From the NCBI GenBank assembly GCA_965213705.1, contig OZ243913.1, positions 224,001-288,000 of the forward strand: a stretch of DNA of 64,000 nucleotides, given 5' to 3'. Positions 1-64,000 of the stretch are shown here, one piece after another. Made by a program: the position numbers and the translations under genes. The notes under the pieces were generated by a model. It did not search any database and was not told where the DNA came from. It worked only from the letters and a program-made list of their open reading frames with translations. The number at the start of each line of letters is the position of its first letter. The stretch's first letter is position 1. Source of the stretch: Trueperaceae bacterium. Its GTDB lineage: Bacteria > Deinococcota > Deinococci > Deinococcales > Trueperaceae.

Positions 1-353
1 TAGAGGGCCGCTCTAAACCCCGCTCCGCGTCGCTCATGCGACTTTTGAGCGAGCCGCCGCGAGAGTGCGTGACGCCCGACGGGACCCAACCACCCGCGAA
101 GCGTCGCCTGTGATGCGCCCGCGCCCTGTGGCGCACCTACAAAGCGAACCCGCTCCGAGCGCATCAGGCTCGAGCTGTTTGTGTACCCGCCGACCACCCA
201 TGTGCCGAACCCACCCCACACCGTTTTACCACAGAACTTCCAGTGAGTATCGCCACAATTTTTGAGCCGGACGGGCACCTTTTTTCAACGACCTGAAGAC
301 CGAGGGGAGCGCAGTCGGGTACGTTGAAGCTCTCAGACAACTTCCGGTGCGGC

Positions 354-959
354 TCAGCGAACGGCGTCCAAAAACTCCTGCCGGGTCGCAGGGTCGTCTT
401 TGAACACGCCGCGCAGGGCGCTCGTGCGGGTTGAAGAACCCTGCTTTTCGACGCCGCGCATCATCATGCAGAGGTGGCTGGCTTCGGTGACGACGGCCAC
501 ACCGCGGGGCGCGAGTACGTCTTGAAGCGCGTCGGCGATTTGACCCGTCATGCGTTCTTGCACCTGCATCCGCCGCGCAAACACGTCGACGATGCGGGCG
601 AACTTGCTCAGGCCCAAGACTTTTTTGTCGGGGACATAAGCGACGTGCGCGCGGCCGAAAAAGGGCAACATGTGGTGTTCGCAGAGGCTGTAAAACTCCA
701 CGTTTTTCACCACCACCATCTCGCTGCCCTCGGCGGAAAAGAGCGCGCCGTTGACGACGTCGGCGATAGACACGCCGTAACCGCTTGTCAGAAACCGCAA
801 AGAACGTTCGACCCGGTGGGGCGTTTTGACGAGACCTTCGCGGCTCAGGTTTTCGCCCAAAGCGGCGATGAGGCTGGCAATCAGCGGGCCGAGGGTGGTT
901 TCGCCGACCTCGTCGAACTCGGGGTCGGCGGGATGTAGCAAGTGGGTGGCGTTTCTCAC
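354..959 (-). CDS. folE: GTP cyclohydrolase I
   Basis: Motifs [52 protein letters not shown] at 959 follows a GGAGGA RBS; the ORF track extends to 1019. Confidence 0.95.
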
Positions 960-1156
960 TTTCAAGCTCCTCCCAGCGGTCGGCGCGCGGACCCGCACCC
1001 CCGAGCCCGCCGCGTCCAAACGTTGCCCAAGCGTAAGGCGTTTCGGCGCGGGGCTTTGTATCGGGTCGAAGCTTTGCCCGACCCTGCGGACGACGTGAGG
1101 CGCAACCCCTGGGCCGCCCCCTTGGACACCCGTTCGTCAGACGCTAAACTGCGCAG

Positions 1157-2407
1157 GTGGAAACTTTGCGCCTCGAGCAGCAAGACAGCTACCGAACCCG
1201 GTTCGAAGCCGCCGTAACGAGCGTGCGCCAAGAAGACGGCGCGCTCTGGGTCGCGCTCGACCAGAGTTTGTTTTATCCCGAGTCCGGCGGTCAACCCGCC
1301 GACAGGGGTATGCTCGGCGCTGATAAAGTCACGTACAGGGTCACAGACGTACAAAAACGGAACGGGGCGGTGTGGCACCGGCTCGAGCCCCACACCGCCC
1401 CGCCTAATCCTGTCGAGTTCAACACTGCCGAGCCCGGCCCCGGTCTCGACGTCGGGCAGGGCGTCATGGGCACCCTCGACTGGCAGCGCCGCTACCGCCA
1501 CATGCAGCGCCACAGCGCCCAGCACCTGCTGTCCCAAGCTTTTTTGCGGGTTAACCCGGCTTTCGAAACCCGCTCGGTAGGTTTAGCGAGCGAGGTTTGC
1601 ACCCTCGACTTGGCGGGCGAACCCGCCGCGGCCGACTGCGCCGCGGCCGAGCGGACGGTGAGTGCGGTCTGTTACCAAAACCTGCCTGTACGCGTCTTTG
1701 AAGTGGACGAGCGCAGTTTGGGCGACTACGCGCTGCGCCGCCCGCCCAAGGTGACGGGCCGTGTTCGGCTCGTCGAAATGGGCGACTTCGAGCTTTCAGC
1801 CTGCGGCGGTACCCACCTGCGCAGCACCGCGGAGGCGTTGCCCGTCAAGGTGTTGGGCGCGGAGCGCGTCAAACGTGAACGGGTACGGGTGCGCTTTAGC
1901 GCGGGCGTAGAGGCCCTGGACGACTACCGGCTCAAACACCGCGTCGTCGCAAGTTTGGGCCGCACTTTGAGCGCGCCGTCGGCGGACTTGCCGGGGCGGG
2001 TCGCCGCGCTGCAAGAAGAATTGAGTGAGGCGCGGCGGTCTTTGCAGCAAAACCTCGAGCAGCGGGCCGAACGCGCCGCCGAAGACTTGCTGACGCGCGC
2101 TCGGGTTACGGGGGCCGGGCGCGTGGTGACGGCGCAGCTCGAGCCCGGTTTGCTGCAACCGGTCGCCGCGGCGCTGTGCCGAACACCCGACGTCATCGCC
2201 CTGCTCGGCAGCGCGGAACACGAACGGGCCACGCTGCTGTTCGTGCGAGGTGAGGTTGCGACCGCCGACATGAACTCCGCCTTGCGCGCGGTGCTGCCCC
2301 TCGTGGACGGACGCGGCGGCGGCAAACCCGACCGCGCGCAAGGCGGCGGCGCGGCGGCCGGGTTGACTGCAGCGCTTGAGCGCGCCGCGCACCTGTTGAG
2401 TGGGTGA
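1157..2407 (+). CDS. AlaX-like alanyl-tRNA editing protein with C-terminal DHHA1 domain
   Basis: FYPESGGQPADRG, Zn ligands HSAQH and CGGTH, C-terminal GRGGGKPDRAQGGG. TAAACT box 6 nt before the GTG. Confidence 0.9.
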   Translation: METLRLEQQDSYRTRFEAAVTSVRQEDGALWVALDQSLFYPESGGQPADRGMLGADKVTYRVTDVQKRNGAVWHRLEPHTAPPNPVEFNTAEPGPGLDVGQGVMGTLDWQRRYRHMQRHSAQHLLSQAFLRVNPAFETRSVGLASEVCTLDLAGEPAAADCAAAERTVSAVCYQNLPVRVFEVDERSLGDYALRRPPKVTGRVRLVEMGDFELSACGGTHLRSTAEALPVKVLGAERVKRERVRVRFSAGVEALDDYRLKHRVVASLGRTLSAPSADLPGRVAALQEELSEARRSLQQNLEQRAERAAEDLLTRARVTGAGRVVTAQLEPGLLQPVAAALCRTPDVIALLGSAEHERATLLFVRGEVATADMNSALRAVLPLVDGRGGGKPDRAQGGGAAAGLTAALERAAHLLSG

Positions 2408-2599
2408 AAGCTTGAATGGGTGAGAGCCCAACCCGGCCTTTTTTCTTGACCACCCGTCGCCCCGGCGAGTCCGCCGGTTATACTGCGCTGTTGTGCGCCC
2501 GGCGTTGTGCGCCCGGACACGTTTGACGCGCCGGTCGGCGGGTAGCCGCGGCGACGCAGCCGTTCGGTGGGGACGGACCTGAAAGCGATGTGGAGAAAC

Positions 2600-3643
2600 A
2601 TGTTTAGATTTTGGCAGGAAATCGGCGTCGACTTGGGCACGGCGAGCGTGCTTATCTACGTCAAAGGCAAGGGCATCAAACTTCGCGAGCCCTCGGTTAT
2701 CGCGATGGTGCGCGATACCGGCGAGGTCAAGGCGGTCGGCGAGGAGGCGTACCGGATGCTCGGGCGCACACCCGGCAACATCGTGGCGGTACGGCCCATG
2801 CGTGACGGCGTCATCGCCGACTACGACCTGACCGAAAAGATGCTGAAGGCTTTTGTCGGCAAGGTGTTGGGTCGTACGAGGGGCATGTTCGGCATGTTCC
2901 GCCCCAACATCATGATTTGTGTGCCGTCGGGCGTGACCGAGGTGGAAAAGCGCGCCGTGTTGCAGGCAACGCGTGAGGTCGGGGCGCGCAAAGCCTACCT
3001 TATAGAGGAACCGCTCGCCGCGGCCATCGGTGCGGGCGTGAACATCGGCGAACCCACGGGCTCGATGATTGTCGACATCGGCGGGGGCACGACCGACGTC
3101 GCCATCATCAGTTTGGGCGGCATCGTGGTGAGCGAAAGTCTGCGCGTCGCGGGCAACGAGTTCGACGAGGCCATCATCCGCTTTGTACGCCAAAAAGAAA
3201 ACCTGCTCATCGGCGACCGCACCGCCGAAGAGGTCAAGATAAAAGTCGGCGCGGCCGTTATCAACGAGCCCGACGACGTGCGCGAACTCTCGGTGCGCGG
3301 GCGCGACCTTATCAACGGTTTGCCCAAAACGGTGACGATGACCAGCGAGGACGTGGTCGCGGCGCTTGAAGAGCCGTTGCAGCGCATCGCCGAGTCGGTG
3401 CGGCGGGTGCTCGAGCACGCTCCGCCCGAACTCGTCGCCGACGTTATCGACCGCGGTATTATCATGACCGGCGGCGGCTCGTTGTTAGCGAACTTCGACA
3501 CGCTGCTGCGCAAAACGACCGGCATCCCCGTCGTCGTCGCGGACAACGCCGTCGACAGCGTCGCCCTGGGCACGGGTCAAGCCCTGGAGATGCTCGGCGT
3601 GCTGCGCGAGGCGCTCATCTCGGACAAGTTCTTGCGGCGCTGA
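2600..3643 (+). CDS. mreB: Rod shape-determining actin homologue (MreB/Mbl family)
   Basis: IGVDLGTA, EPSVIA, GRTPGNI, RPMRDGVIAD, EEPLAAAIGAG, DIGGGTTD, TGGGSLL. GGAGA precedes ATG 2600. Confidence 0.93.
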   Translation: MFRFWQEIGVDLGTASVLIYVKGKGIKLREPSVIAMVRDTGEVKAVGEEAYRMLGRTPGNIVAVRPMRDGVIADYDLTEKMLKAFVGKVLGRTRGMFGMFRPNIMICVPSGVTEVEKRAVLQATREVGARKAYLIEEPLAAAIGAGVNIGEPTGSMIVDIGGGTTDVAIISLGGIVVSESLRVAGNEFDEAIIRFVRQKENLLIGDRTAEEVKIKVGAAVINEPDDVRELSVRGRDLINGLPKTVTMTSEDVVAALEEPLQRIAESVRRVLEHAPPELVADVIDRGIIMTGGGSLLANFDTLLRKTTGIPVVVADNAVDSVALGTGQALEMLGVLREALISDKFLRR

Positions 3644-3675
3644 GTTCAATCGCCGACGTGCGGTAGCATGGGCAC

Positions 3676-5406
3676 GTGAAACGTTTTTGGCGCTTTTGTC
3701 TGTTCGGAACCCTGGCGGTCGCCGCGTCGCCCGCTTTTGCAACCACTTTTCCCTTGTCGGACCTGCGACCGGGCTTGACGGGTTACGGGCTCACCGCCGG
3801 TCCCGGCAACGTCGTCGAGCGCTTCGGAATTGAGGTCTTGGGTCTGCAGGCGGACACCGGCCTGGGGTTTCCGGTGGTGCTGGTGCAGGCCTCGGGCGAC
3901 TTTATCACCGCCTCGGGCGGGGTCGCCGCCGGGATGAGCGGCAGCCCGGTGTACTTGTCCTTAAACGGTGAGGACGCGCTGCTGGGCGCTGTCGGCTACG
4001 TGTTCCCGAGCAGCGACCACAGTCTAGCGCTCGTCACACCCATCGCGACGATGCAAGAGGCGACGACCGCGGACTTTGTTCCGTTCGGCCGGGAGCGGTT
4101 CGCCGGACTCGGCGCGGCCGTCCCGGTGCGCACCCCGCTGTTGCTGTCGGGCGTGAGCGAACGGGCGAGCCGGAGGGTCGCGCCCCTGTTTCAGGCCGCC
4201 GGTCTCGAGGTAGTGCCGGTGCAAACGGGCGGTGGCGGTTTCGACGAGGGCGAGTACCGGCTCGAGCCGGGCAGCGCCGTGAGCGTCCAACTCGTCCGTG
4301 GCGACGTCACCGTGGCGGCGGTCGGCACGGTGACGAGCGTCGAACAGGACACGGTATTGGCCTTTGGACATCCGCTCTTGAACGCGGGCGCGGTCTCGTT
4401 CGCGTTCGCGCCCGCGTTTGTCTCCTACATCGTGCCGAGCGACGTCGTGCCGTTCAAGCTCGCCGACAGCGGCAAAACGGTGTTGGGTACGATTTTACAA
4501 GACCGACCCGCCGCCATTGCCGGACGCTTAAACGAAACGCCCGACCTGCTCCCGGTCACCCTCACCCTGGACGGGCCGGGGGGCACGACGGCCAAGGCGT
4601 TTGAAATCACCAGAGACGAACGCTTTTACGCGCCGCTTCTCGCCACCGCGACTTTGCAACTGCTCGACGAAGCGCGCGCGCAAGTCGGCGCGGGCACGGT
4701 CGACCTCGCCTGGGACATCACGCTGCAAGACGGCGTCAAGCTGCGCGTGCTCGAGCAAGTCAGCGACCCCGACGACGTCGCCTCGGCGGCGGCGGGGTTG
4801 GCGGCGACGCCGCTCGCCGTGCTGGCCGGCAACATCTTCGAAGCGCCCGACGTCCAAAGAGTAGCCGTCAGGCTCAGTTTCGAAGACGACCAGCGCACCG
4901 CCGAAATTATCGAGGTCATAGCCGACAGCGAAACGCTTCAACCGGGTCAACCCTTCAACGTCCACGTGCGTTTGCAACCTTACCGGTCCCCGCCCGTGGT
5001 GGAAAACCTGAGCCTTTACTTTCCTAAAGACGCTACCGGCGACCTCACCGTGACCTTTCGCGGCGGCCTCACAGCGCCGGAAAACGAAGAAGAGGTCGAA
5101 AAGGAAGACGGCAACCCCATTCTGTCCTTCGGCGAACTTTTAGTGGTGCTGCACGACCAGGTCCAGTCGAGCGAACTCGTCGTCGAAACCGAGCTGGACG
5201 GGGAGACGGTGCGTTTGGAGCGCCTGACGTTCCCGTACCTCGTCAAGGGTGAAAAAACGCTTTCTGTGACCGTCGGTGAAGAAGACTCGAGCCCCGAAGA
5301 AACCGCCCCCGACGACACCGTCCCGGCCGAACCCGTGCCCGCACCGGACGAGCTTTTGCCCGACCCCAGCCCCGATCCGGTGCCGCCGCTCGAGCCTAGC
5401 CCGTGA
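3676..5406 (+). CDS. Secreted SpoIVB-like peptidase S55 domain protein
   Basis: Signal peptide, [25 protein letters not shown], and an acidic Pro-rich tail. Confidence 0.85.
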
Positions 5407-6404
5407 CCCCGCACGACGCTCAAGCTTTGAGCGATTTTTTGGGCGGTCGTCTTGTCGGCGAAAATCGCTCTGTGGCTACCCTGCGCCCACCTGAGAAACC
5501 CACGCCGGACGCCGTCGTCGTCCTCGGCACTCGAGCCGAGGCGGAAATCTTGAGCGACGCCGAGGTCGCCGTGCTCGTGGTGCCCGGCACGCTGCAGTTC
5601 GACTTTTTACACCCGCTCATCCGCGTGACAGACACCCGGCTCGCGCTGGCGCGACTTTCAACACTCTTCGACGAGCGCCCGAGGGTGGCCGAGGGAATTT
5701 GCTCGAGCGCTACCGTCCATGACACCGCCCTGCTCGCCGAGGACGTCCACCTGGGCGCGGGCGTGGTCGTCGGGGCGGGCGCGCGCCTGGGCCGCGGCAC
5801 GCGCGTCGGGCCGGGCTGCGTGTTAGGCGCAGGCGCGCGCGTGGGCGAAGACTGCACGCTGCACGCAAACGTCACGCTTTACGACGGCGTGACGCTGCAC
5901 AGTCGGGTAACGCTCCACAGCGGCGTGGTGGTCGGCGCGGACGGTTTCGGCTACGCGCGGGGGGAGCGCGGCGCGGTCAAGATTCACCACCTGGGCGGCG
6001 TGGTGTTGGAAGACGACGTGGAAGTCGGCGCGAACACGTGCATCGACCGGGGCACCCTGCAGAACACCCGCGTCGGCGCGCGCAGCAAAATCGACAACCT
6101 CTGCCAAATTGGGCACAACGTAACCATCGGGCCGGACTGTTTGATAGCGGGCACGGTCGGCATCGCCGGGAGCACGGTGTTGGGCGCGCGCGTTACGGTC
6201 GGCGGCTCGGCGGGCATCGGCGACCACCTCAACATCGGCGACGACGCGCGCGTGGCGGGCCGGGCGGGCGTCATCAAAGACATCCCGGCCGGGGAAACCT
6301 GGGCGGGCTTTCCGGCGCGGCCCCACAGGGCGTGGCTGCGGGGGTTGTACTTGCAGGGCAAGCTCGAGACCCTGTGGCAAGCTTTTAGAGAAAATCGTGG
6401 TTAG
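5403..6404 (+). CDS. lpxD: UDP-3-O-acylglucosamine N-acyltransferase
   Basis: Hexapeptide repeats, [33 protein letters not shown]. Confidence 0.93.
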
Positions 6405-7170
6405 CGGCCACGCCCTGCACAGCGGCGTGTTTTGCGAGGTGCGCTTTCACGTCGAAGAAGGGCCGGTGCGTTTTGTCCGCAACGGCACGAACGTCGAAGC
6501 GACCCTGCAAAACGTGACCAGCACAGAACGTTGCACGACTTTGAGTTACGACGGAGAAAGTGTCACGCTGGTCGAACACCTGCTGGCCGCGCTCCACGTG
6601 CGCGGCTGGTGGCGCGGCCTCGTCGTCGAGGCGAGCGCCGCCGAACTGCCGATTTTGGACGGCTCGAGCGCGCCGTGGCTGCCCGAACTCGACGCCCTCG
6701 GCCCGCCGCCCGCACCGCCGCCGCCCTTGGAAATCACTGAGGATTTGGGGCTCGAGCTGAACGGCAGCCGCTTGAGCGTGTCGCCGGGCGAGCCCTCACT
6801 TTACGTTGAGGTAGCCTACGACCACCCGGCGCTGCGGCGGCAAAGCTGGCAGGGAGACGCGGGCCGCTACAGCGAACTTTTAGGGGCGCGGACCTTCGGT
6901 TTTTTAGGCGACTTCGAAAGTTTGCGCCGCGCCGGGCTCGTTGCGCACGCGACGCTGGAAAATGCTATCGTTTACGCAGAGGGGGGACCGCTCACGCCGC
7001 TCAGAAGCGTGGACGAGCCTGTTAAACACAAAGCCTTAGACCTGTTGGGGGATATGTTCTTGCTAGGCCGACCGCTTCACGGCAGCCTTTGCGCTGTCAA
7101 AGGCTCCCACACCAGCCACGTTGCTTTCGCACGGCGGCTCCGGGCTCATCTCCAGCTCGAGACCCCATGA
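6397..7170 (+). CDS. lpxC: UDP-3-O-acyl-N-acetylglucosamine deacetylase
   Basis: [38 protein letters not shown] (HKxLD zinc motif). Confidence 0.92.
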
Positions 7171-7180
7171 AACGAACTTC

Positions 7181-8146
7181 ATGAAACGCCTCAGGGTCGG
7201 CGTCGTCGGTGCAGGCGTGATGGGCAAACATCATGCCAACATCTACGCCGCGCTGCCCCATGTCGACCTCGTCGCCGTCGCCGACCCGGACCCCACACAA
7301 CGCCGTGAAATGAGCGACCGTTACGCCGTCGAAACCTACCCGGACGCCGAAACGCTGCTGAGCCATGCCCGCTTGGACGCGGTGAGCATCGCCGCGCCGA
7401 CGAGCCTGCATTACCGCCTCAGCAAGCGTTTTTTAGAAGCGGGTGTTCACGTTTTGGTCGAAAAGCCGGTCGCCACCGACATGTTCCAGGCCAAAGCCCT
7501 CATAGGCTTGAGCCGCGAGCGCGGGCTCGTGCTGCAAGTCGGGCACATCACCCGGTTTTACAAGGCGGTCGACCTGCTCAAAGAACAGTCACGGCGGCCC
7601 TACCTCATCGAAGCGCGGCGGCTCACCCCTTACGCCCGCATCAAAGACGCGGGCGTCATTTTGGACCTGATGATTCACGACATCGACATCGTGCTGAGTT
7701 TGGTGAGCAGCGAAGTCAAAAGCGTCAGCGTGTCGGGCCACGTCCTGAACGGCAGCCCCTTTGAAGACGTGGCGGCGGCGCAAATCGTCTTTGAAAACGG
7801 CTGTATCGCCCGCTTTTTGGCGAGCCGCGTCGCCCCCGACGCCGAGCGCACCCTCGTCGTCGCCGAGGCCGAGCAGACCCTGCGCTTGGACTTCGCCAAA
7901 GAGCCGCACACCGAGATGGCCGTCTATAAACCGCTCCACGACGAGACCGGCAACGGCCACGTGCAAGTCGACGTGCGCAGCGTGTACGAGGACAACCCGC
8001 TCCGCAAGGAACTCGAGCACTTTTTAGCCCGCATCCGCACCGGCGCGCCGCCGGTGGGCACCCCTGAGGACGACCTGCGCTCGCTCAGTTTGGCGACGCA
8101 GTTGATTGAGAAGTTGGAAGTCACGCGGACGGCGCAGTTGGTGTGA
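7181..8146 (+). CDS. Gfo/Idh/MocA oxidoreductase (GnnA-like by position)
   Basis: VGVVGAGVMG, HVLVEKP, LQVGH, DLMIHDID. Located inside the lpx cluster. Confidence 0.85.
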   Translation: MKRLRVGVVGAGVMGKHHANIYAALPHVDLVAVADPDPTQRREMSDRYAVETYPDAETLLSHARLDAVSIAAPTSLHYRLSKRFLEAGVHVLVEKPVATDMFQAKALIGLSRERGLVLQVGHITRFYKAVDLLKEQSRRPYLIEARRLTPYARIKDAGVILDLMIHDIDIVLSLVSSEVKSVSVSGHVLNGSPFEDVAAAQIVFENGCIARFLASRVAPDAERTLVVAEAEQTLRLDFAKEPHTEMAVYKPLHDETGNGHVQVDVRSVYEDNPLRKELEHFLARIRTGAPPVGTPEDDLRSLSLATQLIEKLEVTRTAQLV

Positions 8147-8188
8147 GGGATATTCATGATTGTAGCTCACTACGATTAAGGATGATAT

Positions 8189-9106
8189 TTGTTAGCTAAA
8201 AAGCGAAAACAGCACTACGTCTGGCGGCATTATCTTAAAGCCTGGTCAGACGAAGATGGGCTTATCTGCTGCTTAAGAGAAGGTAAGATTTTCAGATCAA
8301 ACCCGATGGGGATTGCCCACAGCAGAGACTTCTACAGACTCAGAGAGTTAACCCCTCGCGAAATTGAGCTGGTGAAATTGGCCTTCGTTGATAATTCTCC
8401 TGAACATTTGAAGGATATTAATAGCGATTGGATAAAAATTTTTGGCAGCGTTTTTGAATTTCGAAAGTGTTTAGAAGTACATGAAATGTTGGATGAGGAG
8501 TGGAATGAGTTTTTAGACATTGTAGTGAACAATCTTGAGGAAGAACTTCACGCTGATGTTGAAACGAATTCAGTTAGGTACTTAGCTTCTTTAGTGGAAG
8601 AAGATACTTCTTTCGTTACTAGCCATGAATACATGAATTTTCTTGTTTTCTTGATTTTGCAGTACGTTCGGACAAACAAAGTCAAAACCAATTTTTTGTC
8701 TGCTGTACACGGTGTTATTCCAAACATAAATGTAGAAGCTGTTTGGAGCGTTTCCAAACATATTTTTGCAACGAATTTTGCATGGAACTTATATTCCAAA
8801 CGAGAAAAGATGAAACTATACTTGCTTAGAAACACGACATCCGCTGAGCTTATTACTGGTGACCAACTAGTGGTTAACACTTACGCAACTGACACAGAAA
8901 AATATCAACCTGTAGATGATCTGGAGCTGTATTACCCTATTACGCCAAGGTTGGGAATACTTATAACTGATCAGTTATCCTTGCGGAACGGTGAGATTTT
9001 AGAGCTAAATGAAGACGATGTTGCAGTGTACAATCATCATATTTTTCAGAATGCACACGACCAAATTTATAGCCTTTCACGAGTTTCGTTAGAGAAGTTA
9101 ATGTAA
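8189..9106 (+). CDS. DUF4238-like protein, AT-rich insertion
   Basis: N-terminal KQHYVWRHYLKAW, central QYVRT, LITGDQLVVN and YYPITP are typical of DUF4238. GC drops sharply relative to the flanks. Confidence 0.75.
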   Translation: MLAKKRKQHYVWRHYLKAWSDEDGLICCLREGKIFRSNPMGIAHSRDFYRLRELTPREIELVKLAFVDNSPEHLKDINSDWIKIFGSVFEFRKCLEVHEMLDEEWNEFLDIVVNNLEEELHADVETNSVRYLASLVEEDTSFVTSHEYMNFLVFLILQYVRTNKVKTNFLSAVHGVIPNINVEAVWSVSKHIFATNFAWNLYSKREKMKLYLLRNTTSAELITGDQLVVNTYATDTEKYQPVDDLELYYPITPRLGILITDQLSLRNGEILELNEDDVAVYNHHIFQNAHDQIYSLSRVSLEKLM

Positions 9107-9177
9107 ATCAAAACGCAACTAGGCACTGCAAGAGTTCACCTCCCGACCCGCCCGGCCCGAATGCTAGACTGACCCCC

Positions 9178-9612
9178 ATGACCACCCGACCCCAAACCGT
9201 CGACATCCGCGCGCTGTTGCCGCACCGTTACCCGTTTTTGATGGTGGACGCCTTTGTTTCGCAGCAGGGCGACAGTTTCGAATGTGTCAAAAACGTGAGT
9301 TTCAACGAGCCCTTTTTTCAGGGCCACTTTCCCGAAGAACCGGTGATGCCGGGGGTGCTGATTCTCGAGGCCCTAGCCCAAGCCGCCGCCGTGGGTCTGG
9401 CGGTGCGTGAGGGTGCGTTCGACAAGCGCGTCGGCTACTTCGTCGGCATCGACGCCGCCAAGTTCACGCGGAAAGTCGTGCCGGGCGACCGTTTGCGCTT
9501 AACCGGCGACATTTTGCTCTATCGGCGCAGGCTTTACAAAGTGGCGACTAAGGCTCTTGTGGGTGACGAGCTGGCCGCCGAAGCGCAACTGGCGTTCGTG
9601 TTCGCGGAGTAG
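9178..9612 (+). CDS. fabZ: 3-hydroxyacyl-ACP dehydratase
   Basis: LPHRYPFLMVD, KNVSFNEPFFQGHFP, PGVLILEALAQ. Confidence 0.96.
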   Translation: MTTRPQTVDIRALLPHRYPFLMVDAFVSQQGDSFECVKNVSFNEPFFQGHFPEEPVMPGVLILEALAQAAAVGLAVREGAFDKRVGYFVGIDAAKFTRKVVPGDRLRLTGDILLYRRRLYKVATKALVGDELAAEAQLAFVFAE

Positions 9613-9613
9613 C

Positions 9614-10384
9614 GTGCCGGTGCTGCCCCGCATCCACGCCAGCGCCTCGGTGAGTTCGCAAGCGCGGCTCGCCGACACGGTAACGGTCGGGCCGAACGTG
9701 GTGGTAGAAGATGACGTGGTCGTCGAGGACGGCGTCACGCTGCTGGCGGGCACGGTGCTCCACGCGGGCAGCCGGGTCGGGCCGGGGTGCCGTTTGGGAC
9801 CTTACGCAGTGGTCGGCGGCGAGCCGATGGACACTGCGTTCCGGGGTGAAACGAGTTACGCCGTGCTGGAAGCGAATACCGTGCTGCGCGAGTTCGCCAC
9901 GGTTCACCGCGCGACCGGCGAAGGCGAGGTGACGCGGGTCGGCGCGGACACGCTCGTCATGAGTTACGCGCACGTGTCGCACAACACGCGGGTCGGGCGA
10001 GGTTGTGTGCTGACCACAGGCGTGCAGCTCGGTGGACACAGCGAAATCGGCGACTTCGCGGTGCTCGGCTCAGGCGCGCTGCTGCACCAGTTTTGCCGTG
10101 TCGGAACCCACGCCATGTTCGGCGCGGGGAGCGCGACGAACCAGGACGTGCTGCCCTTCAGCTTGGCGCGCGGCAACCTGGCAGCGCACTACCGGCTCAA
10201 CCGGGTGGGGCTGGAGCGGCGCGGTATTGTTGGCGAGCGTTACAAAAACCTCGAGCACGCCGTCCGCGCCTTCCGAAAACGCGACTGGGCGACCCTCGAA
10301 GCGTTGGCCGAGACGAGCGACGACGTGCGGACGATGCTCGAGTTCAAACAAACCTCCAAACGTGGTTTATGCTCTTTCGTGTGA
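9614..10384 (+). CDS. lpxA: Acyl-ACP--UDP-GlcNAc O-acyltransferase
   Basis: IHASASV, hexapeptide repeats, REFATVHRAT, YAHVSHN, LGGH, HQFCRVG, LNRVGLERRG. GTG at 9614 follows the fabZ stop. Confidence 0.92.
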   Translation: MPVLPRIHASASVSSQARLADTVTVGPNVVVEDDVVVEDGVTLLAGTVLHAGSRVGPGCRLGPYAVVGGEPMDTAFRGETSYAVLEANTVLREFATVHRATGEGEVTRVGADTLVMSYAHVSHNTRVGRGCVLTTGVQLGGHSEIGDFAVLGSGALLHQFCRVGTHAMFGAGSATNQDVLPFSLARGNLAAHYRLNRVGLERRGIVGERYKNLEHAVRAFRKRDWATLEALAETSDDVRTMLEFKQTSKRGLCSFV

Positions 10385-10446
10385 GGTCGAACGCCACGTC
10401 GCACTTTCCCCTCGGTACCCGGTACCCGGTTACTCACCCCTGACCC

Positions 10447-50234: not shown

Positions 50235-50430
50235 TTACAAAGGGTGGTCCCCAGTAGCATACCGGCCTCGCTCAACCACATAGCAGCTAACCTCGGTACC
50301 GTCGGGTTCGCACTCCCGCTTCTCGAACTTCATGCTTAGCTTGTCAGCTACCTTCATAGAGGGTGCATTTTCCTGGTGGATAATTGCGTAGATTTTAGCC
50401 AGCGTGGATTTCTTAAAACCGATGACAAAA
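50235..50430 (-). pseudogene. C-terminal remnant of a RimJ/RimL-type GNAT acetyltransferase
   Basis: GFKKSTLAKIYAIIHQENAPSMKVADKLSMKFE; no recognisable N-terminal half. Confidence 0.55.
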
Positions 50431-50780
50431 ACCAGGGTGTGGACACGTTTTTTGAAGGGCTCGAGAGAATCCGGTTTCACCGCCAACAGATAGCACAAAA
50501 CACCCACCCGGTACGTGATAAACCGCATTCACAGCGTCGGCCAATCCAGAAGGCGGCCGGCGAAAGCTCGTCACGAATCCCCCGTTTTCGGCTTGCTACA
50601 GGGCGGGGCTGTTGGCGTGTTGTGGGCTCGGGGCCTTACGCCACAACCTAAGACTCGAGCCCGCGCCCTGCCGGACATACGTCACACGTCCGGCCCGCCC
50701 AAAAGCTTTTATACTCGGGGTGTGAAACTTCAGCTCGAGCCCCTCCGGTCTGGCACAACGGTTCTGCAGGGCCGTACAGC

Positions 50781-52370: not shown

Positions 52371-52392
52371 ACATACAGCCTAGACGTACCGT

Positions 52393-53420: not shown

Positions 53421-53595
53421 CGGGCGCTCGGGTTATGCTTAGGCCGTCGGCTGAACGCCGGCGGACGTCACAGCGACCCGTCTTCATACAGATGGGCGCT
53501 TCCCAACCGAGTAAAAGTCACGATGGCGGCGCTCGAACGAACGAGAAGATTGTCTTGACACCCTTCTCAAACACAACACTTTCGAAGGGCACGCC

Positions 53596-54332
53596 ATGAA
53601 GCTATCCATCGAACTCGTTCCGCGAAACCTTGCCAAGCTCGAGCAAGAACTGCAAGCCGTCAACGACCATTTTCCCCACATCGACACCGTCAACATCCCC
53701 GATTTACTGAAGTTCGAGACCCGCAGTTGGCACGCCTGCGCCTGCGCCAAGCGCTTTATGGCGCGCGCCATTCCCCACCTGCGCGCCATCGACATCGATT
53801 TAGCCAAACCCCTCGCCATCGCGCTGTTTTTGCGAGCGAACGGTCTGAGTGAGGTTTTGGTCGTCGCGGGCGACGCCCCGGCGGACATGTCGCGCACGGT
53901 TTACGACACGAGCAGCGTACAGGTCATCCGCAAACTGCGCCGTGAATTGCCCGAAGTCACGGTCTACGCCGCGCTCGACCCGTACCGGCAAAGTTTCGCC
54001 GCCGAGCTAGCCTACGCCGAACAAAAGCTCGAGGCCGGTGCTGCAGGCTTTTTCACCCAACCTTTTTTCGACCTGCGGCTGCTGGAAATGTACGCCGAGT
54101 TTTTCCGCGGCGTGCCCGTGTACTGGGGCGTCACCACGGTGACGAGCGAGAGTTCGCTGAGCTACTGGCGCAACCGCAACAAGGCGGTGTTTCCCGAGAG
54201 TTTCGAACCCAACCTGGGCTGGTGCCGAGGCTTTGCCAAAGACGCACTCTGCTTCGCCGAGAAACGCGATTTGAGCTTGTACTTCATGCCGATTCGTGCT
54301 TCGGCGGTAAGCTTTTTGAAGGGCGTTTTAGT

Positions 54333-54336
<4 letters not shown>
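53596..54336 (+). CDS. metF: Methylenetetrahydrofolate reductase (short form)
   Basis: [41 protein letters not shown]. Overlaps the metH start. Confidence 0.8.
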
Positions 54337-58046
<3,710 letters not shown>

Positions 58047-58062
58047 ACCTCTATACTGAGGT

Positions 58063-58701
58063 ATGGCTGGCCCTACACTAAACCGAACGACGGGAGACAG
58101 CTCGAGGCTCAAATCTGTCTCGACGGCAGAAGCCTTGCTGTCTTCGCTCCAAGCCGAGGCCAAACCCTTCCGCACCACAGTGGACGCCTATTACAAAATG
58201 GCCGAGACAGGTTTACTGGACACTGAAAAACGGTACGAACTGATTCACGGCGTCGTTTTGGAGATGCACCCCATCAGCCCTCAACACGGCCACAGGGTGA
58301 AGCGCTTGGGCGACCAGTTGAACGCTTGCCTCGAGGGCAAGGCCGAAGTCTTCACCCAGCACCCTATCCACATCGGCAACGACAGCGAGCCCGAGCCCGA
58401 TGTTTTAGTTCTGAAACCACCCCTCGATCAGTACGCGAAACGTCTCCCCCGCCCCGAGGACATCCTGCTCATCATCGAAGTCGCCAACACGACCTTGCAA
58501 ACCGACCGCACGCTTAAACTCCGGCTTTACGCGGGCGCGGGCATCCCCGAATACTGGCTGCTGAACTTGCAAAAAAACCAGCTCGAGCTGTACCGCCGCC
58601 CCGACCCGGACGAGGCGCGCTATTTGGAGCTGCACACCCTGAGCGAAGGCGAGGCGGCGACGTTTGGGGATGCGGCGTGCGGGCTCGAGTGGTGGAGGTA
58701 A
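58063..58701 (+). CDS. Uma2-family endonuclease-fold protein
   Basis: YELIHG, EPEPDV, IIEVA, DRTLKLRLYAGAGIPEYW. Confidence 0.88.
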   Translation: MAGPTLNRTTGDSSRLKSVSTAEALLSSLQAEAKPFRTTVDAYYKMAETGLLDTEKRYELIHGVVLEMHPISPQHGHRVKRLGDQLNACLEGKAEVFTQHPIHIGNDSEPEPDVLVLKPPLDQYAKRLPRPEDILLIIEVANTTLQTDRTLKLRLYAGAGIPEYWLLNLQKNQLELYRRPDPDEARYLELHTLSEGEAATFGDAACGLEWWR

Positions 58702-58702
58702 T

Positions 58703-60142
58703 CTAAAGTTCTACTGTCGCTTCACCTAAAATCATCGCCTCGACCTCACGCTTAGCCTGCTCTAAACCCTCGCTGGCTTCTTGTTGTAACTGTTTGGCTT
58801 TTTGTCGAACCAAAGCGATATGGTTAGCAATCTCGTCCTGTTTTCCAAGTGGAGGTAAAGGTATTTTGATTTGACCAATATCTCTGGGATAAATGTGCGA
58901 TGTTTGACCTCTCTTTTCTCGATTCAAGAGGTTCTTGTATAACTCTGTGCTGAGTAGTGAAAAAACAAAGAGGGTATTGCATACAGAACTGCTTGGTCTC
59001 ACACAAATAAGCTCACCGACATAAGAGGTAGGTATCTCAGGAGCTTCATCTAGGTATTTTATGAATCGTCCAACATAACTTGACTGGTGGGCGGCAGACA
59101 ATATAAATGTATCCCCCTTTTTGACAGTCAGAGCCTGATTTTCCAGTGTGTAGCTGACTTTTGACAAGTCAATTTCTTGACCAGAATAGGTGCTAACTTT
59201 GACGATGGGGAAATCAGTTTTCTCTTCGGAGTATGACAAGCTGGATGGCGTTTTACCGCTAAGCAAAGCGGCGCAAACATCTTTTAACTTTTTCAAGGGA
59301 TGTTTGCTTTTTGAAATTGCCGTGTTCATATATTCGTATGACTGGCGGAAGTATTCAGGGTCAAACCGCGCTTCAGAAACCTTACTAAGCTGCTGGTAAA
59401 AAATTCTGTTTTGCAGGGTGTTGGCTTGCTCTTCCGGTTTGTCAATGCCCAACTCAGCCAGCAAGTAATTATCTACGCTGTCCAAAAGCTGCTGTGCTTG
59501 TGCTTCTTTTCGCTTCTTGACGGTGTAAGCAGCGTCCATTTTTCTGACAAGTCGGTTTTGGATTTCCAAAGCGGGCATCGGAATCATCAAACGGTCAAAT
59601 TGTTCAGTATTGACGCTTTGAACAGTTGCACCGTGTTTGGTTACCAGGGGCAAAAGTTGTTCTTGAAAAATGTCGAGATAGTGTGCGGCAAAAGCCGGAA
59701 CCATTCTTTTATCAAACATCAAAGCTTTCAAATCTTGGTTTATAGCTGTTGGTGTGGTCGTCACGGTTACAGGCAAAGAGTGTTTTAGAATTCCGCTGCG
59801 CACTACGACCAACACCGAATTTGCAGGGACCAAGGTTGTTGCAGAGTCGAGTACAGCTTGTTCGGTTATTTTGTCCTCTGTGTCATAAAGATAGATGCCG
59901 TTCATATCTTTGGGAGACGCCCAAGGAATTGACCCTGACCAATATTCAGTATTGGCTTTGCTTGGTGTGCCCCCGCTTGACGAAACGCAAAGTTTGCTCA
60001 GCGCCTTGGCAGGAAAAGCAAAGTCGAGGTTTGAGCGAATGCTTGCAAGGTTAAAAACTGGGTCGAGTCTTCCCTGTAGTTCACTCCGGTAAACCAAAAA
60101 AATCTTGTTTCTGTCAATTTCCGGCGAAAGCTCAAAACTCAT
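58703..60142 (-). CDS. Restriction-modification specificity (S) subunit
   Basis: Two TRD repeats (SGGTP...IPMPALEIQ; SGKTP...IPLPPLGKQ). ATGA overlap with the RM gene. Confidence 0.88.
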   Translation of the reverse strand: MSFELSPEIDRNKIFLVYRSELQGRLDPVFNLASIRSNLDFAFPAKALSKLCVSSSGGTPSKANTEYWSGSIPWASPKDMNGIYLYDTEDKITEQAVLDSATTLVPANSVLVVVRSGILKHSLPVTVTTTPTAINQDLKALMFDKRMVPAFAAHYLDIFQEQLLPLVTKHGATVQSVNTEQFDRLMIPMPALEIQNRLVRKMDAAYTVKKRKEAQAQQLLDSVDNYLLAELGIDKPEEQANTLQNRIFYQQLSKVSEARFDPEYFRQSYEYMNTAISKSKHPLKKLKDVCAALLSGKTPSSLSYSEEKTDFPIVKVSTYSGQEIDLSKVSYTLENQALTVKKGDTFILSAAHQSSYVGRFIKYLDEAPEIPTSYVGELICVRPSSSVCNTLFVFSLLSTELYKNLLNREKRGQTSHIYPRDIGQIKIPLPPLGKQDEIANHIALVRQKAKQLQQEASEGLEQAKREVEAMILGEATVEL

Positions 60143-62259
60143 GCTTTACCCTGCTCAACCGCCTCGATAAACCGGCTCAACTCTGCACTTATGTTGTCCA
60201 AATCGTTTATTCCCGTGTTCTTGCCCGTAGCGTCGTAGCCTATGTCTTCGGCGATTACCATAAATATCGGGTAGTCCTCGAGCGTCCTTTGTTTTTGCTC
60301 GGTGTAAACTTCTTCCAAGGTCTCTTTCAACTCGTCTACCTTTTCTTTATAAAGCGCGTTGACACTGTTCCGCCAATCTTTGTAAGCTGGCGAGTTCTTC
60401 AGGGCTTTGCCGCTCAACCTGTCTGGATTTTCAAAGCCGCGCAGTTCGGCTAGGTGCTTCTTTTTCTCGGCGTCAATGTCTCTTAACTTTTTCAGGTAGA
60501 CGTACTCTTCTTTGATAGCGTCCTGCAACGCCACTTTTTGCTGTTGGATGCGCTCCGTAGTGGCTTTGGTGTGCTTTTTCAGGAAGAGGACGGAGCTTTT
60601 GACGCCTGCGCCGGTGGCGGAAAAAGCGGTTTGCGGCATACTGACCACGGCGATGATTCGGTAGCTCTCTTCTATGCCGTCACGCACGTATTGCAGGCTC
60701 GAGTTGGTCAGTATGCCGTCCGGCACGACCATTGCCAAGTAGCCGCCTTCTTTTAAGAAGTTGTGGCACTGCTCGATAAAGAGAATTTCGGTGTTCTGGT
60801 TGTCACGCTCGCTTTGTTTGCTTTTGGGGTTGAGCCAGCCGACATCTTTCTGCGCGAAACCGTAGTTTTTCATGTAGGCTTGCTCAGTCTGCTTCACGAC
60901 GGAGCCAAAAGGTGGATTGGTAATAACAAAATCGAACGTGCCGTACTTGAAGCCGTGATTGTTGGTTTTGTTGATGATGTCTTCGCTTGGTACAAGCCCG
61001 TCGGACGCGATGACGTTTGTGTGGCCGTCGTCGTGAATAATCATGTTCATCTTGGCGACGCGGGCAATCTGTTCGTTTATTTCAATGCCGAAAAGATTCT
61101 TTTCGGCAAAGTCGTGCCAGTATTTATAGTGCTCTATGGTGCCCTCGTTGTAATAGTTGTTGGCTTGATGCCTGATTTTGTCGAGTGCGTGGAGCAGAAA
61201 GCCGCCACTGCCGCAGGAGGTGTCCAATACTTTCGATTCATTGGTGATAGGTAAAACATCGACGATAAATTTAACAATAGGACGAGGTGTAAAGTATTGC
61301 CCGAAGTCACCCCTGAAAAACGAACCCATGAAGGTCTCGAAGGCGCGGCCCTTGCTGTCCAAGTCGGTCTTGCCTAAGTCAACGCCCTCTAAATAACCGA
61401 CGACGGTACGAAGCTTTTCCGCGCTCAAACGTATGTCTTCTTTAAAAACTTCGGGGTCTTTAGTGCGGCCCTCCTCATAAAGAGCTTTGACACGTTTGAG
61501 AAGTTCTTGGTTGGTTTTCTCTTCGCTGTCTTCCTGAAAAATCTGAAAGTCGTAAGCTGCCCCCGGTTTACGCGGTTTTCGCTCGTCCCAAATTTTACAG
61601 AAGATAAGTTTGTCCAGTTCGTCAAAGGCGGATGACGGGTTGAGTTCACCGCCGCCCCAGAGCGCTTGGTGAGCTTGCTTAAAGCGCCGAGTCAACTCTT
61701 CCTGTTCTACCGTTTCCAGCGCAAACAGCTTTTGCCCGTCGGGGCTGGTGCCGCCGTTCTTCGCATACTTGTATTTAGCAATGTTGGCAACACCGTACTG
61801 AGGTATATCTGGGATGGTAATGCGGCCTTTGGGCTTCTCTTTGGGGACTTCGTAGTATTCATCTTTGATACCCGAAGTCGTCCAAACATACTTCGCGCCT
61901 TCGGCAACGGCGTAGCTGAAAGCTTGTTCGGTCGCCTGCTTGAACTCGAGTTCTGATACTTCTTCTTTCTTACATTCCGCAATAATGTAAGGTGACAAGC
62001 GTTCGTCATCGTTGTAGACGATAATGTCCGCTTCACGTTTGCTCGCGCCCATCGTCACGTTCACGAATTGGCGTATGCGTTCGGGAGAGTAGCCGTAGGT
62101 CAGGATGAGTTTCAAAAAGGTTTCAGCTTGAACCTCTTCTTCCGGGTTTTTGAAGTTTCTACGTTTGTTTTCGTTGTGGTAAGTGATGTACTTCTGGTCG
62201 TTGTCCTGCGTGACAACCGAAATAAATCCTTTGTTGATGCCTTCAGCTAGTAAACTCAT
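60139..62259 (-). CDS. Fused endonuclease (HsdR-N-like PD-(D/E)xK) and N6-adenine DNA methyltransferase
   Basis: NPEEEVQ, ADIIVY...AECKK, GQYFTPR, DTSCGSGGFL, ITNPPFG. Confidence 0.88.
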   Translation of the reverse strand: MSLLAEGINKGFISVVTQDNDQKYITYHNENKRRNFKNPEEEVQAETFLKLILTYGYSPERIRQFVNVTMGASKREADIIVYNDDERLSPYIIAECKKEEVSELEFKQATEQAFSYAVAEGAKYVWTTSGIKDEYYEVPKEKPKGRITIPDIPQYGVANIAKYKYAKNGGTSPDGQKLFALETVEQEELTRRFKQAHQALWGGGELNPSSAFDELDKLIFCKIWDERKPRKPGAAYDFQIFQEDSEEKTNQELLKRVKALYEEGRTKDPEVFKEDIRLSAEKLRTVVGYLEGVDLGKTDLDSKGRAFETFMGSFFRGDFGQYFTPRPIVKFIVDVLPITNESKVLDTSCGSGGFLLHALDKIRHQANNYYNEGTIEHYKYWHDFAEKNLFGIEINEQIARVAKMNMIIHDDGHTNVIASDGLVPSEDIINKTNNHGFKYGTFDFVITNPPFGSVVKQTEQAYMKNYGFAQKDVGWLNPKSKQSERDNQNTEILFIEQCHNFLKEGGYLAMVVPDGILTNSSLQYVRDGIEESYRIIAVVSMPQTAFSATGAGVKSSVLFLKKHTKATTERIQQQKVALQDAIKEEYVYLKKLRDIDAEKKKHLAELRGFENPDRLSGKALKNSPAYKDWRNSVNALYKEKVDELKETLEEVYTEQKQRTLEDYPIFMVIAEDIGYDATGKNTGINDLDNISAELSRFIEAVEQGKA

Positions 62260-62319
62260 TGCCCTCGAGTTTAACCCTTTGTTCGTTGGGATTCAAAACT
62301 CGTTTTGTTGGTTTTTAGC

Positions 62320-62574
62320 TTAATGTAAGCTCGAGCCTGTTTCGGGATGACGAGTGTTACTGCCTCGAGTGAGCGCCATAATCTCGTCCGTGCTCAGCTT
62401 GACGGTAGCAACGCCGCGCAACCGTTCGAAAGGACTGTCTTCGTTACTTTCTTTTTTGACCAACAAAACTTTGTTCTCCTCGACCACAAAATCGACTTCG
62501 CTGTAGGGAGTAAGCCCCAGTTTTTCGCGAATCGCTTGCGGAATGGTCACTTGCCCTTTGCTGGTGACACGCAC
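62320..62574 (-). CDS. AbrB/MazE/SpoVT-family antitoxin
   Basis: MRVTSKGQVTIPQAIREKLGL...STDEIMALTRG. AAGGAG RBS. Confidence 0.88.
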   Translation of the reverse strand: MRVTSKGQVTIPQAIREKLGLTPYSEVDFVVEENKVLLVKKESNEDSPFERLRGVATVKLSTDEIMALTRGSNTRHPETGSSLH

Positions 62575-62645
62575 TTGAAAACTCCTTAATCATACCTGGT
62601 AAGAGTATTACTTTAGCATCCTCTCGCTCATCTTTGAATCCAAAA

Positions 62646-63455
62646 TTACCCCTCGCCCCGTTGCTGCAACGCTTCGCGCAACCCGGCCAGCTCGAGCCGC
62701 AGCGCTCTAATATCTTCACTCCCAGCTACTTCCGCCTCGCCGTTCGCCGCGTCGCGGCCGATAAAGAAGCTCGCCAGCGTCGCGGTCAGGTAGCCGAACA
62801 CGGCGAAACCGTAAACCGCCAGCAGCAGGCACAAGATGCGCCCCTCGGCCGTTCGCGGCCAGTATTCCGAGCCGAGCGAGGTGAGCAGCATGGCCGTCCA
62901 CCACAACGCTTCGCCGTAGTTGGCAAAGCCTGCGTCGTCCGGTAAACCGCTTTCGAACGCATACATGCCGGCACCCCCGGCCAAAATCACGAGGATGGTG
63001 AGCGCCAGCACGTAGCCGAAACCGCGGCGGCTCATGGTCGCGGCGAGTGCGTTCATGCCGCGGTTGATAGAGGCGACCACCCGCACGAGTCGCAAGCCCC
63101 GCGTCGCCCTGGACAAGCGCAACAGGCGCACCACCCGGAACGCGCGGAAAACCCGCAGCGCCGGAATCAGGAGCGACACGGCCGTGAGCAAGTTGCGGCG
63201 CAGGTAGCGGCCCTTGCGCGGCGCGAGCGCAAAACGCACGATGAAGTCCACGATGAAAATCGCCCAGATGGCGAGCCCCAGCGTCTCGAACAGCGGGCTC
63301 GAGCCCCAGATGAACTCTACCAACAGCAACGCCAACCACACAAAGCCGAGTACGATGAGCGGCGTGTCGAGCCATTCGTCGAGCTGCTGCAAGACCTCTA
63401 AGCGTTCGTTCTCGTGCTCGGGCGTGTTCGCCGCGCCGGAAGGTTGTCCGTCCAT
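62646..63455 (-). CDS. Voltage-gated-type ion channel protein
   Basis: Transmembrane helices, Arg-periodic S4 (RVFRAFRVVRLLRLSR), pore helix ALWW...TSLGSEYWP. Confidence 0.85.
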   Translation of the reverse strand: MDGQPSGAANTPEHENERLEVLQQLDEWLDTPLIVLGFVWLALLLVEFIWGSSPLFETLGLAIWAIFIVDFIVRFALAPRKGRYLRRNLLTAVSLLIPALRVFRAFRVVRLLRLSRATRGLRLVRVVASINRGMNALAATMSRRGFGYVLALTILVILAGGAGMYAFESGLPDDAGFANYGEALWWTAMLLTSLGSEYWPRTAEGRILCLLLAVYGFAVFGYLTATLASFFIGRDAANGEAEVAGSEDIRALRLELAGLREALQQRGEG

Positions 63456-63600
63456 GATTCTCTCCCGGAACAGTTTAACCGGCTCGGGCACACTTCTCGA
63501 GCAGAGGAGCAGAGGAGAAAAAGCTTTTGACTTTACTTTCCCCTTTCTCCTCTTCCCTTTTCCCTCTTCACTTTCTACTTTCCACTCGGTCCTCGGTACT

Positions 63601-63999
63601 TTAGATCTCCGTCACCTGCGTCCCGCCCGTCTCAAACTTCAGCATCATCTCCCGCAACTCGGGCAGCGCCCTGCGCACGGCGTCTTGTTGGCCGTCGGGG
63701 CAGCAGACCATCACAAAGGCGCTGATTTTGCCGCCGGGAAGCTGCGCGTAAGCGCCCGTGGCGCGCACGCGAGCGACCACGTCCAGCACGTAGTCGTCCA
63801 CGAAGTGACCGGGCAACCGTTGTTTGAGACTTTGCATCTCGCCGACGAGTGCGGCGACGCGGGCCAGTTCGCTAGCCTCGAGCGCGCCTTCTAGGTCGTA
63901 GCCGCTGCGGCGGATGGCGTGGAGCGTTTCGACGGCCTCGCCCATGTGGCTGTTCAGGAGTGCCAGCGAGGGCTTGCTTTTGTGGTGGCGGCCGCCGTA
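63601..63999 (-). CDS. C-terminal part of a possible GHMP-kinase-like protein, running off the window edge
   Basis: The frame is open to the window end. Helical pattern and terminal LKFETGGTQV resemble sugar-kinase C-domains. Confidence 0.45.
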   Translation of the reverse strand, partial: YGGRHHKSKPSLALLNSHMGEAVETLHAIRRSGYDLEGALEASELARVAALVGEMQSLKQRLPGHFVDDYVLDVVARVRATGAYAQLPGGKISAFVMVCCPDGQQDAVRRALPELREMMLKFETGGTQVTEI

Positions 64000-64000
64000 A

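Follow-up and report, generated by a model that had tools for sequence, protein, structure and literature searches.

The palindromic hexamer CTCGAG occurs in excess throughout the 4.25-Mb single-contig genome of a Trueperaceae bacterium (G000, 98% complete), from which the window analysed here, the whole stretch of 64,000 nucleotides at G000:C1:224001-288000, was taken, and the analysis confirmed that this excess is real, genome-wide, independent of reading frame and present also in intergenic DNA. Comparison with a congener showed that a site-specific force acts on the word, mostly against its loss (loss 4-12 times lower, gain 1-2 times control), and CTCGAG would appear to be held in place site by site across the genome, most firmly as GCTCGAGC.

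Genome-wide counts returned 8,868 copies (2.09 per kb, 2088 per Mb, or one per ~480 bases), with 75-151 copies in each of 85 bins of 50 kb. The observed/expected (O/E) ratio was 6.35 at Markov order 0, 3.69 at order 2 and 1.47 at order 4, CTCGAG being the top hexamer by O/E at order 2 and by z at order 4, the maximal Markov order. The octamer GCTCGAGC, present in 2,879 copies (678 per Mb), stood at 22 times expectation at order 0, 8.4 times at order 2 and 0.97 at order 6, and had the highest order-2 O/E of all octamers present in 200 copies or more. Genes of 48-68% GC carried 1.9-2.4 sites per kb throughout.

Codon-preserving nulls were then applied to genes called with our own dicodon model (3898 genes, of which the 3412 with a score of at least 30 were used). 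When each protein sequence was kept and its codons were sampled according to genome usage, 4909 sites were observed in frame 0 against 1825 expected (2.7-fold), 868 in frame 1 (NCT-CGA-GNN) against 34 (25-fold) and 1065 in frame 2 against 287 (3.7-fold); within-gene synonymous shuffles (10 shuffles of the 3412 genes) gave corresponding means of 1897, 45 and 291. The excess thus persisted in every frame and was not confined to in-frame Leu-Glu, so that neither of the two outcomes named as refuting the original prediction was observed. An origin as a by-product of codon use plus the Leu-Glu dipeptide draws on the 72% of coding sites (4909 of 6842) that are in-frame Leu-Glu; it is refuted for G000 by the 868 frame-1 sites, where 34-45 were expected, and by the contrast between CTC-GAA at 0.21 of expectation and CTC-GAG at 2.7, so that its probability is negligible, although it may explain raw counts in some high-GC relatives, several of which exhibit a small and nearly all in-frame excess (ratios 1.0-1.5). 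Fully 20% of all CGA codons in the genome fall inside CTCGAG. Intergenic DNA (468 kb) contained 1202 sites, 7.5 times the number expected under an order-2 model from whose training data the motif had been masked (4.3-9.7 times depending on length class and null), when one-off variants of the word stood at 0.66-1.17 of theirs; G preceded 54% of intergenic sites as against a background of 27%.

A number of other 6-bp palindromes are strongly depleted, CGATCG, TGGCCA, CCATGG, GCATGC and GAGCTC all lying at 0.03-0.04 of order-2 expectation, and the depleted words are far more numerous than resident enzymes could cover. The proposal that restriction avoidance purged other palindromes and left their codons to CTCGAG takes its support from such figures (73 copies of GAGCTC; CGATCG, TGGCCA and CCATGG at 0.03 of expectation; GATC at 0.10). 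It is already largely refuted and very improbable: the excess holds against non-palindromic one-off words, in intergenic DNA and in frame 1, which calls for a choice of two rare codons, and avoidance of other words leaves the lower loss of CTCGAG unexplained.

Rates of loss and gain were estimated against G001, the only congener, of which 1.2 Mb of the 4.3-Mb main contig was read, yielding 723 pairs of orthologues with an identity of 70% or more (mean 88%) and with four-fold sites 73% identical against 40% at random (first 267 pairs). Two-state estimates, which assume equilibrium and uniform sites and derive from this one genome pair, placed loss by GAG to GAA after a shared CTC at 0.084 of control (95% bootstrap interval 0.044-0.139) and the corresponding gain at 2.2 times control (1.3-3.9); before a shared GAG, loss by CTC to CTG was 0.23 of control (0.14-0.32) and gain 1.4 times (0.92-2.0). 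At the -1 flank, loss of G was 0.074 as against 0.17-0.18 in controls (2.3-2.5 times rarer), with gain unchanged and C at the same position kept as in controls. Retention is firmest for sites within GCTCGAGC, being graded from 0.96 with both G and C flanks through 0.91 with the 5' flank only and 0.89 with the 3' flank only to 0.76 with neither, and was independent of distance to the next site (0.85-0.89). In the same genome pair, CGA was kept in 109 of the 117 NCT-CGA-G contexts of G000 as against 47 of 133 other contexts, and four-fold identity was not raised near sites (0.713 at 2-5 codons, 0.73-0.74 farther away). The motif-generating process originally predicted must accordingly be reworded: the data point more to retention, and gain reached only 1-2 times control.

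Taken alone, these rates do not discriminate between selection, biased conversion and lowered mutation. In the last case the sites would be functionless, with methylation or a bound enzyme lowering mutation out of the site so that copies pile up. The confinement of the asymmetry mostly to loss, gain being near control at the Leu position and the -1 flank, accords with such an origin, which is nevertheless unlikely: Glu-position gain lies above control (lower bound 1.3), Leu-Glu pairs occur at 1.25 times expectation as against 0.90-0.92 for Leu-Asp, Val-Glu and Ile-Glu, and a 12-fold protection over several positions combined with a G-specific flank effect would be hard to obtain from one methyl group.

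Within the window, a word count gave the following record:

169..63882, no strand: 127 dispersed copies of CTCGAG.

The first copy begins at 169 and the last at 63877, and 49 take the form GCTCGAGC. The original estimate of about 50 copies in the first 25 kb against about 8 expected proved accurate (49 counted, 8.1 from base composition); the GC content was put too high (63%, measured at 60.4%). Seventy sites lie in frame 0, 17 in frame 1, 14 in frame 2 and 26 in intergenic DNA or uncalled genes. Across 41 window genes, the 63, 16 and 12 sites observed in frames 0, 1 and 2 compare with within-gene synonymous shuffle means of 23.9, 0.6 and 3.8 and maxima over 1000 shuffles of 38, 5 and 12, the frame-2 count being reached by at least one shuffle and the other two by none. 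Occurrence in all three frames, including the form GCT-CGA-G, was borne out at the three positions cited as examples:

15141..15146, plus strand: frame-1 site GCT-CGA-GCC (rare Arg codon CGA) in the open reading frame (ORF) 14531-15478.
47884..47889, plus strand: frame-1 site GCT-CGA-GCC in ORF 47367-48944.
57061..57066, plus strand: frame-1 site GCT-CGA-GCC in ORF 54333-58046.

The 26 intergenic or uncalled sites likewise agree with the claim that the word extends to intergenic DNA, and two copies do stand in a terminator-like stem (45245-45272; minimum free energy -21.7 kcal/mol, z -3.5):

45245..45277, plus strand: terminator-like hairpin with CTCGAG in each arm (45249, 45263), followed by a T run.

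Presence in AT-rich accessory genes was substantiated for a pilin-like cluster and a restriction locus, and not for the transposase of an insertion sequence (IS):

20188..23626, plus strand: pilin-like accessory cluster (N-methyl/GspH, PilX_N) of low GC content (53%), with 6 sites against 0.9 expected.
30600..34700, no strand: stretch of 53% GC with small ORFs, toxin-antitoxin-like by resemblance, and 10 sites against 1.1 expected.
34894..36198, minus strand: DDE transposase (IS), with no site against 0.4 expected and so uninformative alone.
58703-62259, minus strand: restriction locus of low GC content (47%), with 3 sites against 0.8 expected.

The last of these encodes a 706-aa HSDR_N and N6_Mtase fusion followed by a 479-aa two-domain specificity subunit. 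An Rfam scan of the window returned no match.

The distribution of the word was followed through whole-genome counts, with GAGCTC as the sole control, in five families of Deinococcales, Deinococcus-like and Thermus-like genomes included. Family layout suggests that f1, the family of G000, is Trueperaceae and that genus g25 is Deinococcus; genus g30 is Meiothermus-like by the source names of its proteins, and g27 Thermus-like by its TaqI genes. Densities were 0.3-2.6 CTCGAG per kb in f1 (24 genomes), 1.7-2.9 in f3 (4 genomes) and 4.3-6.8 in all 19 genomes of f5, where GC content is ~47% and the three genomes sampled exhibited no flank preference. In f4, g30 carries 1.4-3.5 per kb (26 genomes) and g36 and g37 together 2.5-3.4 (7 genomes), with g27 at 0.6-1.6 and near the GAGCTC control (32 genomes). 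In f2, all 67 g25 genomes lie at or below 0.27 per kb, and 3 of the 14 others reach 3.6, 7.0 and 8.6. The check across Deinococcota therefore shows a lineage-wide word, dense in branches of all five sampled families and not so in the 67 Deinococcus-like and 32 Thermus-like genomes. The G and C flanks, real in G000 as judged from graded retention, do not extend to the densest family, and from their absence in f5 the core of the word is taken to be the hexamer.

Raw counts overstate the excess in high-GC genomes, and out-of-frame ratios were therefore computed on 14-120 kb per genome. They were 5.7-14.6 in G001, G002, G004, G008, G013, G017 and G023, 12 in G030 (5 sites) and 12-16 in f5, and did not exceed 2.6 in the other 16 f1 genomes tested or in G026. 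Among G121, G122, G127 and G130 of f2, genus g42 is divided, G127 and G130 standing at 7.0 and 8.6 per kb and G122 at 0.3, and thereby offers a close contrast for finding genes that track CTCGAG.

CTCGAG is likely to be adenine-methylated, and the role may fall to a conserved methyltransferase with no partner nuclease, encoded beside dnaG; judged from sequence, the odds that this enzyme is specific for CTCGAG are about even:

G000:C1:1135936-1137615, minus strand, outside the window: candidate 559-aa adenine methyltransferase with N6_Mtase, Eco57I and M_Eco57I_C domains.

The gene lies alone between dnaG and a tsaB-like gene, with no nuclease gene adjoining, and the SAM-binding and NPPF motifs of its product look intact. 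Orthologues are present in 14 of the 24 f1 genomes, 8 of them also adjoining dnaG and/or a V-ATPase I gene, and in a tree the 19 Deinococcales-type rows (one source-labelled Planctomycetes) formed a clade (98/90) apart from plasmid restriction-system homologues. The enzymes of G000 and G001 (L021 and L028) occupy the same place after dnaG, are 43% identical where orthologues average 88%, and are not sisters in the tree; either in-place replacement or fast evolution would account for their divergence. Among the 26 g30 genomes, 19 carry the candidate, 6 an XhoI-linked methyltransferase family, none both and one (81% complete) neither, a mutual exclusion for which p is ~3e-5 by hand if genomes are independent, which they are not. 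The XhoI-linked family, carried instead by those 6 genomes and by all 3 of g37, has a 51-53% identical homologue in G024 that stands directly before a broken XhoI-family nuclease; at this locus (L083), in a genome with 2 CTCGAG per kb, the nuclease gene, interrupted by stops, lies 3' of an intact-looking methyltransferase gene. A lone TaqI-like enzyme is present in G030. TaqI-like methyltransferases occur in 32 of 32 g27 and 2 of 2 g39 genomes; a TaqI nuclease adjoins L092, and L093 has no such ORF of at least 200 aa.

Neither a TaqI-like nor an XhoI-linked orthologue was found in G000, nor any match to C5 methyltransferases (PF00145) or XhoI-family nucleases (PF04555), the latter occurring in 3 of 41 genomes. 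An XhoI/PaeR7I restriction-modification system was rejected as a candidate on the last of these grounds and in view of the enrichment, rather than avoidance, of CTCGAG. The other DNA methyltransferases of G000 sit in restriction-like loci. One (G000:C1:4058495-4061818; L002, L003, L018) combines a Dam-family methyltransferase, a MutH/Sau3AI-like nuclease and an N6_N4 methyltransferase, and together with the depletion of GATC genome-wide fits a GATC restriction system. In f5, no adenine methyltransferase was common to all four genomes searched; a C5 methyltransferase (L136-L139) is conserved in all four at 74-86% identity, and since GGCC is nearly absent from the three f5 genomes sampled (0.01-0.02 of expectation), this enzyme may target GGCC rather than CTCGAG.

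In the parts available to us, Blow et al. 2016 (PMC4752239, Table S3) list N6-methyladenine (m6A) methyltransferases for CTCGAG, active on 94-99.5% of sites, in Marinithermus hydrothermalis, Meiothermus ruber and M. chliarophilus. These orphan enzymes (M.Mhy14884I, M.Mru1279II and M.Mch9957IV) serve the same word in the same order with no cognate nuclease listed, and probably belong to the TaqI-like and XhoI-linked families that lack an orthologue in G000; as far as its available text goes, the paper reports methylation of CTCGAG and not genome-wide excess or conservation. The suggestion that a methyltransferase might be linked to the word has circumstantial support in the conservation and mutual exclusion of the candidate and in the methylation published for relatives; on the other side, the avoidance test was negative and the f5 and g36 genomes searched are without the enzyme.

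Given methylation, a putative reader that recognises the mark would tilt transformation or recombinational repair towards whichever DNA copy has the site, the bias acting presumably through strand exchange; such a drive would act like selection at each site and require no benefit to the host gene. That the methylated word is favoured by a sequence-specific reader during these processes is the reading tentatively preferred, as a realistic possibility, because specificity is sharp and graded, the rates are drive-like, methyltransferases have apparently been replaced, and the effect of HIP1, the highly iterated palindrome (HIP) of cyanobacteria, on transformation is methylation-dependent, methylated HIP1 raising it more than 100-fold in Synechococcus PCC 7002 according to the available text of bioRxiv 10.1101/2024.09.10.611283. 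Motif patterns in G000, together with likeness to known examples, pointed to comEA-, comEC- and dprA-like genes and two recA-like genes (motif matches at G000:C1:102982 and 3349163). Deinococcus and Thermus are polyploid and competent.

Several observations weigh against a reader of this kind and against the candidate as its writer. A pure drive or selection model predicts a Leu-position gain of 2.2, outside the interval of 0.92-2.0; no protein that could act as the reader came to light; and drive and ordinary selection cannot be told apart on these data. The candidate enzyme is not sufficient, since out-of-frame ratios are only 0.6-1.9 in G007, G009, G011, G014 and G018 despite its presence, and not necessary, since G013 (92% complete) reaches 7.7 without it; the 4 f5 and 4 g36 genomes searched match none of the three adenine methyltransferase families, and the available text of PMC4752239 gives no CTCGAG enzyme for Meiothermus silvanus. 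G024 carries both enzyme families, and the split of 6 and 19 in g30 may represent one to three events among kin that are not independent. Among distant restriction-modification relatives on plasmids and chromosomes, CTCGAG is not avoided (59 copies against 63 expected; 157 against 159), and the word was not singled out for avoidance in 17 loci with distant homologues of the candidate. The correlation between enzyme and density within f1 is also weak: over 23 genomes, neither the density of sites (per kb; p 0.14) nor the ratio at order 0 (p 0.24) or in frame (p 0.43) could be predicted from presence of the enzyme, and only the out-of-frame ratio differed (median 2.17 against 0.97, p 0.013), these being four tests on 14-120 kb per genome with no kinship correction and with G005 (67% complete, 6.7 kb read) dropped. 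Pfam nuclease families matched none of 4 and none of 1 neighbours of the candidate's plasmid homologues, and a structure-database search with the enzyme returned only a weak type I match.

The main rival is purifying selection for an abundant protein that binds (G)CTCGAG(C) to organise or segregate the chromosome, methylation being secondary or modulating; it is rather less likely than the reader-driven process. Its specificity would be of the sharp, symmetric and graded kind observed, loss and gain at the Glu position fit a selection term S of ~3.3, and dense lineages with no common adenine methyltransferase would present no difficulty; Xu et al. 2018 (PMC5861425), in the text available, read HIP1 in this way. 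Coverage is even, with a gap coefficient of variation of 0.94 for CTCGAG and of 1.02-1.32 for 13 control words. Pairs closer than 50 bp are ~30% short, in part necessarily since copies cannot overlap, and a smaller deficit extends to ~400 bp. Against such a binder, density varies ~30-fold among lineages having the excess or close by, the 67 Deinococcus-like genomes live at no more than 0.27 per kb, retention takes no account of the distance to the next site, and no periodicity was evident up to 2 kb, pair counts being flat from 0.5 to 2 kb.

Spacing slightly more even than random would also suit the HIP model of Elhai, in which MutS/MutL mismatch repair tells the parental strand by hemimethylated CTCGAG sites, which build up to a working density. 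The architecture of a core with G and C flanks matches HIP1, and mutS- and mutL-like genes lie two genes apart in G000. Such a role is, however, quite improbable, and slightly more so than lowered mutation: proximity to a site does not raise four-fold identity (although hardly any DNA lies beyond the reach of one), crowding does not speed up loss, and the density of f5 is six times the proposed saturation. In the available text of PMC4390886 (section 3.4) the model also needs a methylated first C, for which G000 has no PF00145 match.

It is possible, if somewhat doubtful, that an ancestral HIP system, unconnected with that of cyanobacteria, extends across the order Deinococcales; CTCGAG would have been kept in it as three or more unrelated families (Eco57I-C type, XhoI-linked and TaqI-like) took turns as the writer, and Deinococcus and Thermus would have lost the system. 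If so, a conserved reader would demand the methylated word and not any one enzyme, and cultured Meiothermus beside Thermus would provide a first direct genetic test of the role of highly iterated palindromes.

CTCGAG works like HIP1 and shares most of the properties tested for in the HIP class, but is not HIP1: GCGATCGC, HIP1 proper, has only 4 copies in the 4.25 Mb, 0.02 of expectation. The label HIP1-like was well chosen in that an excess that is frame-independent, intergenic, lineage-wide and conserved beyond codons corresponds to the criteria used for HIP1. The available text of PMC4390886 and PMC5861425 describes HIP1 (GCGATCGC) and the alternate HIPs of cyanobacteria as, likewise, palindromes with a 6-bp core, G and C flanks and ~2000 copies per Mb, occurring in three frames and non-coding DNA, conserved beyond codons and accompanied by methyltransferases without nuclease. 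The abundance typical of the class (roughly 1000-2000 copies per Mb, as the top over-represented word) is matched by the 2088 per Mb of CTCGAG. The word and phylum differ, the fold excess in G000 is lower (octamer 22 times at order 0, 8.4 at order 2), the candidate mark is m6A here and 5-methylcytosine there, the flanks are dispensable in f5, and the methyltransferases acting on CTCGAG apparently come from three or more unrelated families. PMC5861425, in the part available, sets an O/E above 16 as the cut-off for HIP1-rich genomes; by our own expectation method, which is not that of PMC5861425, the values at orders 0 and 2 were 22 and 8.4 (octamer) and 6.4 and 3.7 (hexamer) in G000, and 25-29 and 15-17 in f5.

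A second iterated word in another phylum supplies an independent comparison for the still unexplained HIP1, and genes whose occurrence follows that of the word in the two phyla would be leads to the reader. CTCGAG ranges from absence in Deinococcus- and Thermus-like genomes through 2-3 per kb in G000 and Meiothermus-like genomes to 4-9 per kb, with cultured relatives of mapped methylation; it is usable as a lineage signature and may bear on the transformation of these bacteria. DNA uptake sequences (Neisseria, Pasteurellaceae) and Chi are also short genome-wide words, built up through uptake or recombination and able to sit in terminator stems; they are longer and non-palindromic, and Chi is strand-polarised, whereas CTCGAG is a palindrome of 6-8 bp with no receptor identified. 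Very-short-patch repair by Dcm/Vsr also couples a biased repair to a methyltransferase and raises the frequency of the site on which it acts. It differs in that G000 has no C5 methyltransferase match and that C-to-T neighbours of CTCGAG are not singled out for depletion; a short Vsr motif, used in place of a family search, gave no match in G000. The available text of PMC4752239 (Fig. 6 text) describes the same word and an orphan methyltransferase at the Nocardia origin, clustered there between dnaA and dnaN with the mark on C; in G000, by contrast, the excess is genome-wide with no origin cluster, the 436-bp dnaA-dnaN gap (G000:443141-443577) holding 1 site among 9 DnaA-box-like words. A full-text literature search, in which most matches were judged from listings and most subscription journals and REBASE were outside coverage, found no description of CTCGAG over-representation in Deinococcota.

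Minor features of the distribution within G000 were also recorded. The 42 tRNA genes (3.3 kb) contain no site. Genes with the most typical dicodon scores carry 1.1 sites per kb and use the word for 31% of Leu-Glu pairs, as against 2.1-2.6 per kb and 48-54% in average genes, the score being possibly confounded. Density is 1.4-1.7 times higher within 50 bases of stop codons on either side, and 1.1-1.35 times higher in the 200 bases upstream of starts.

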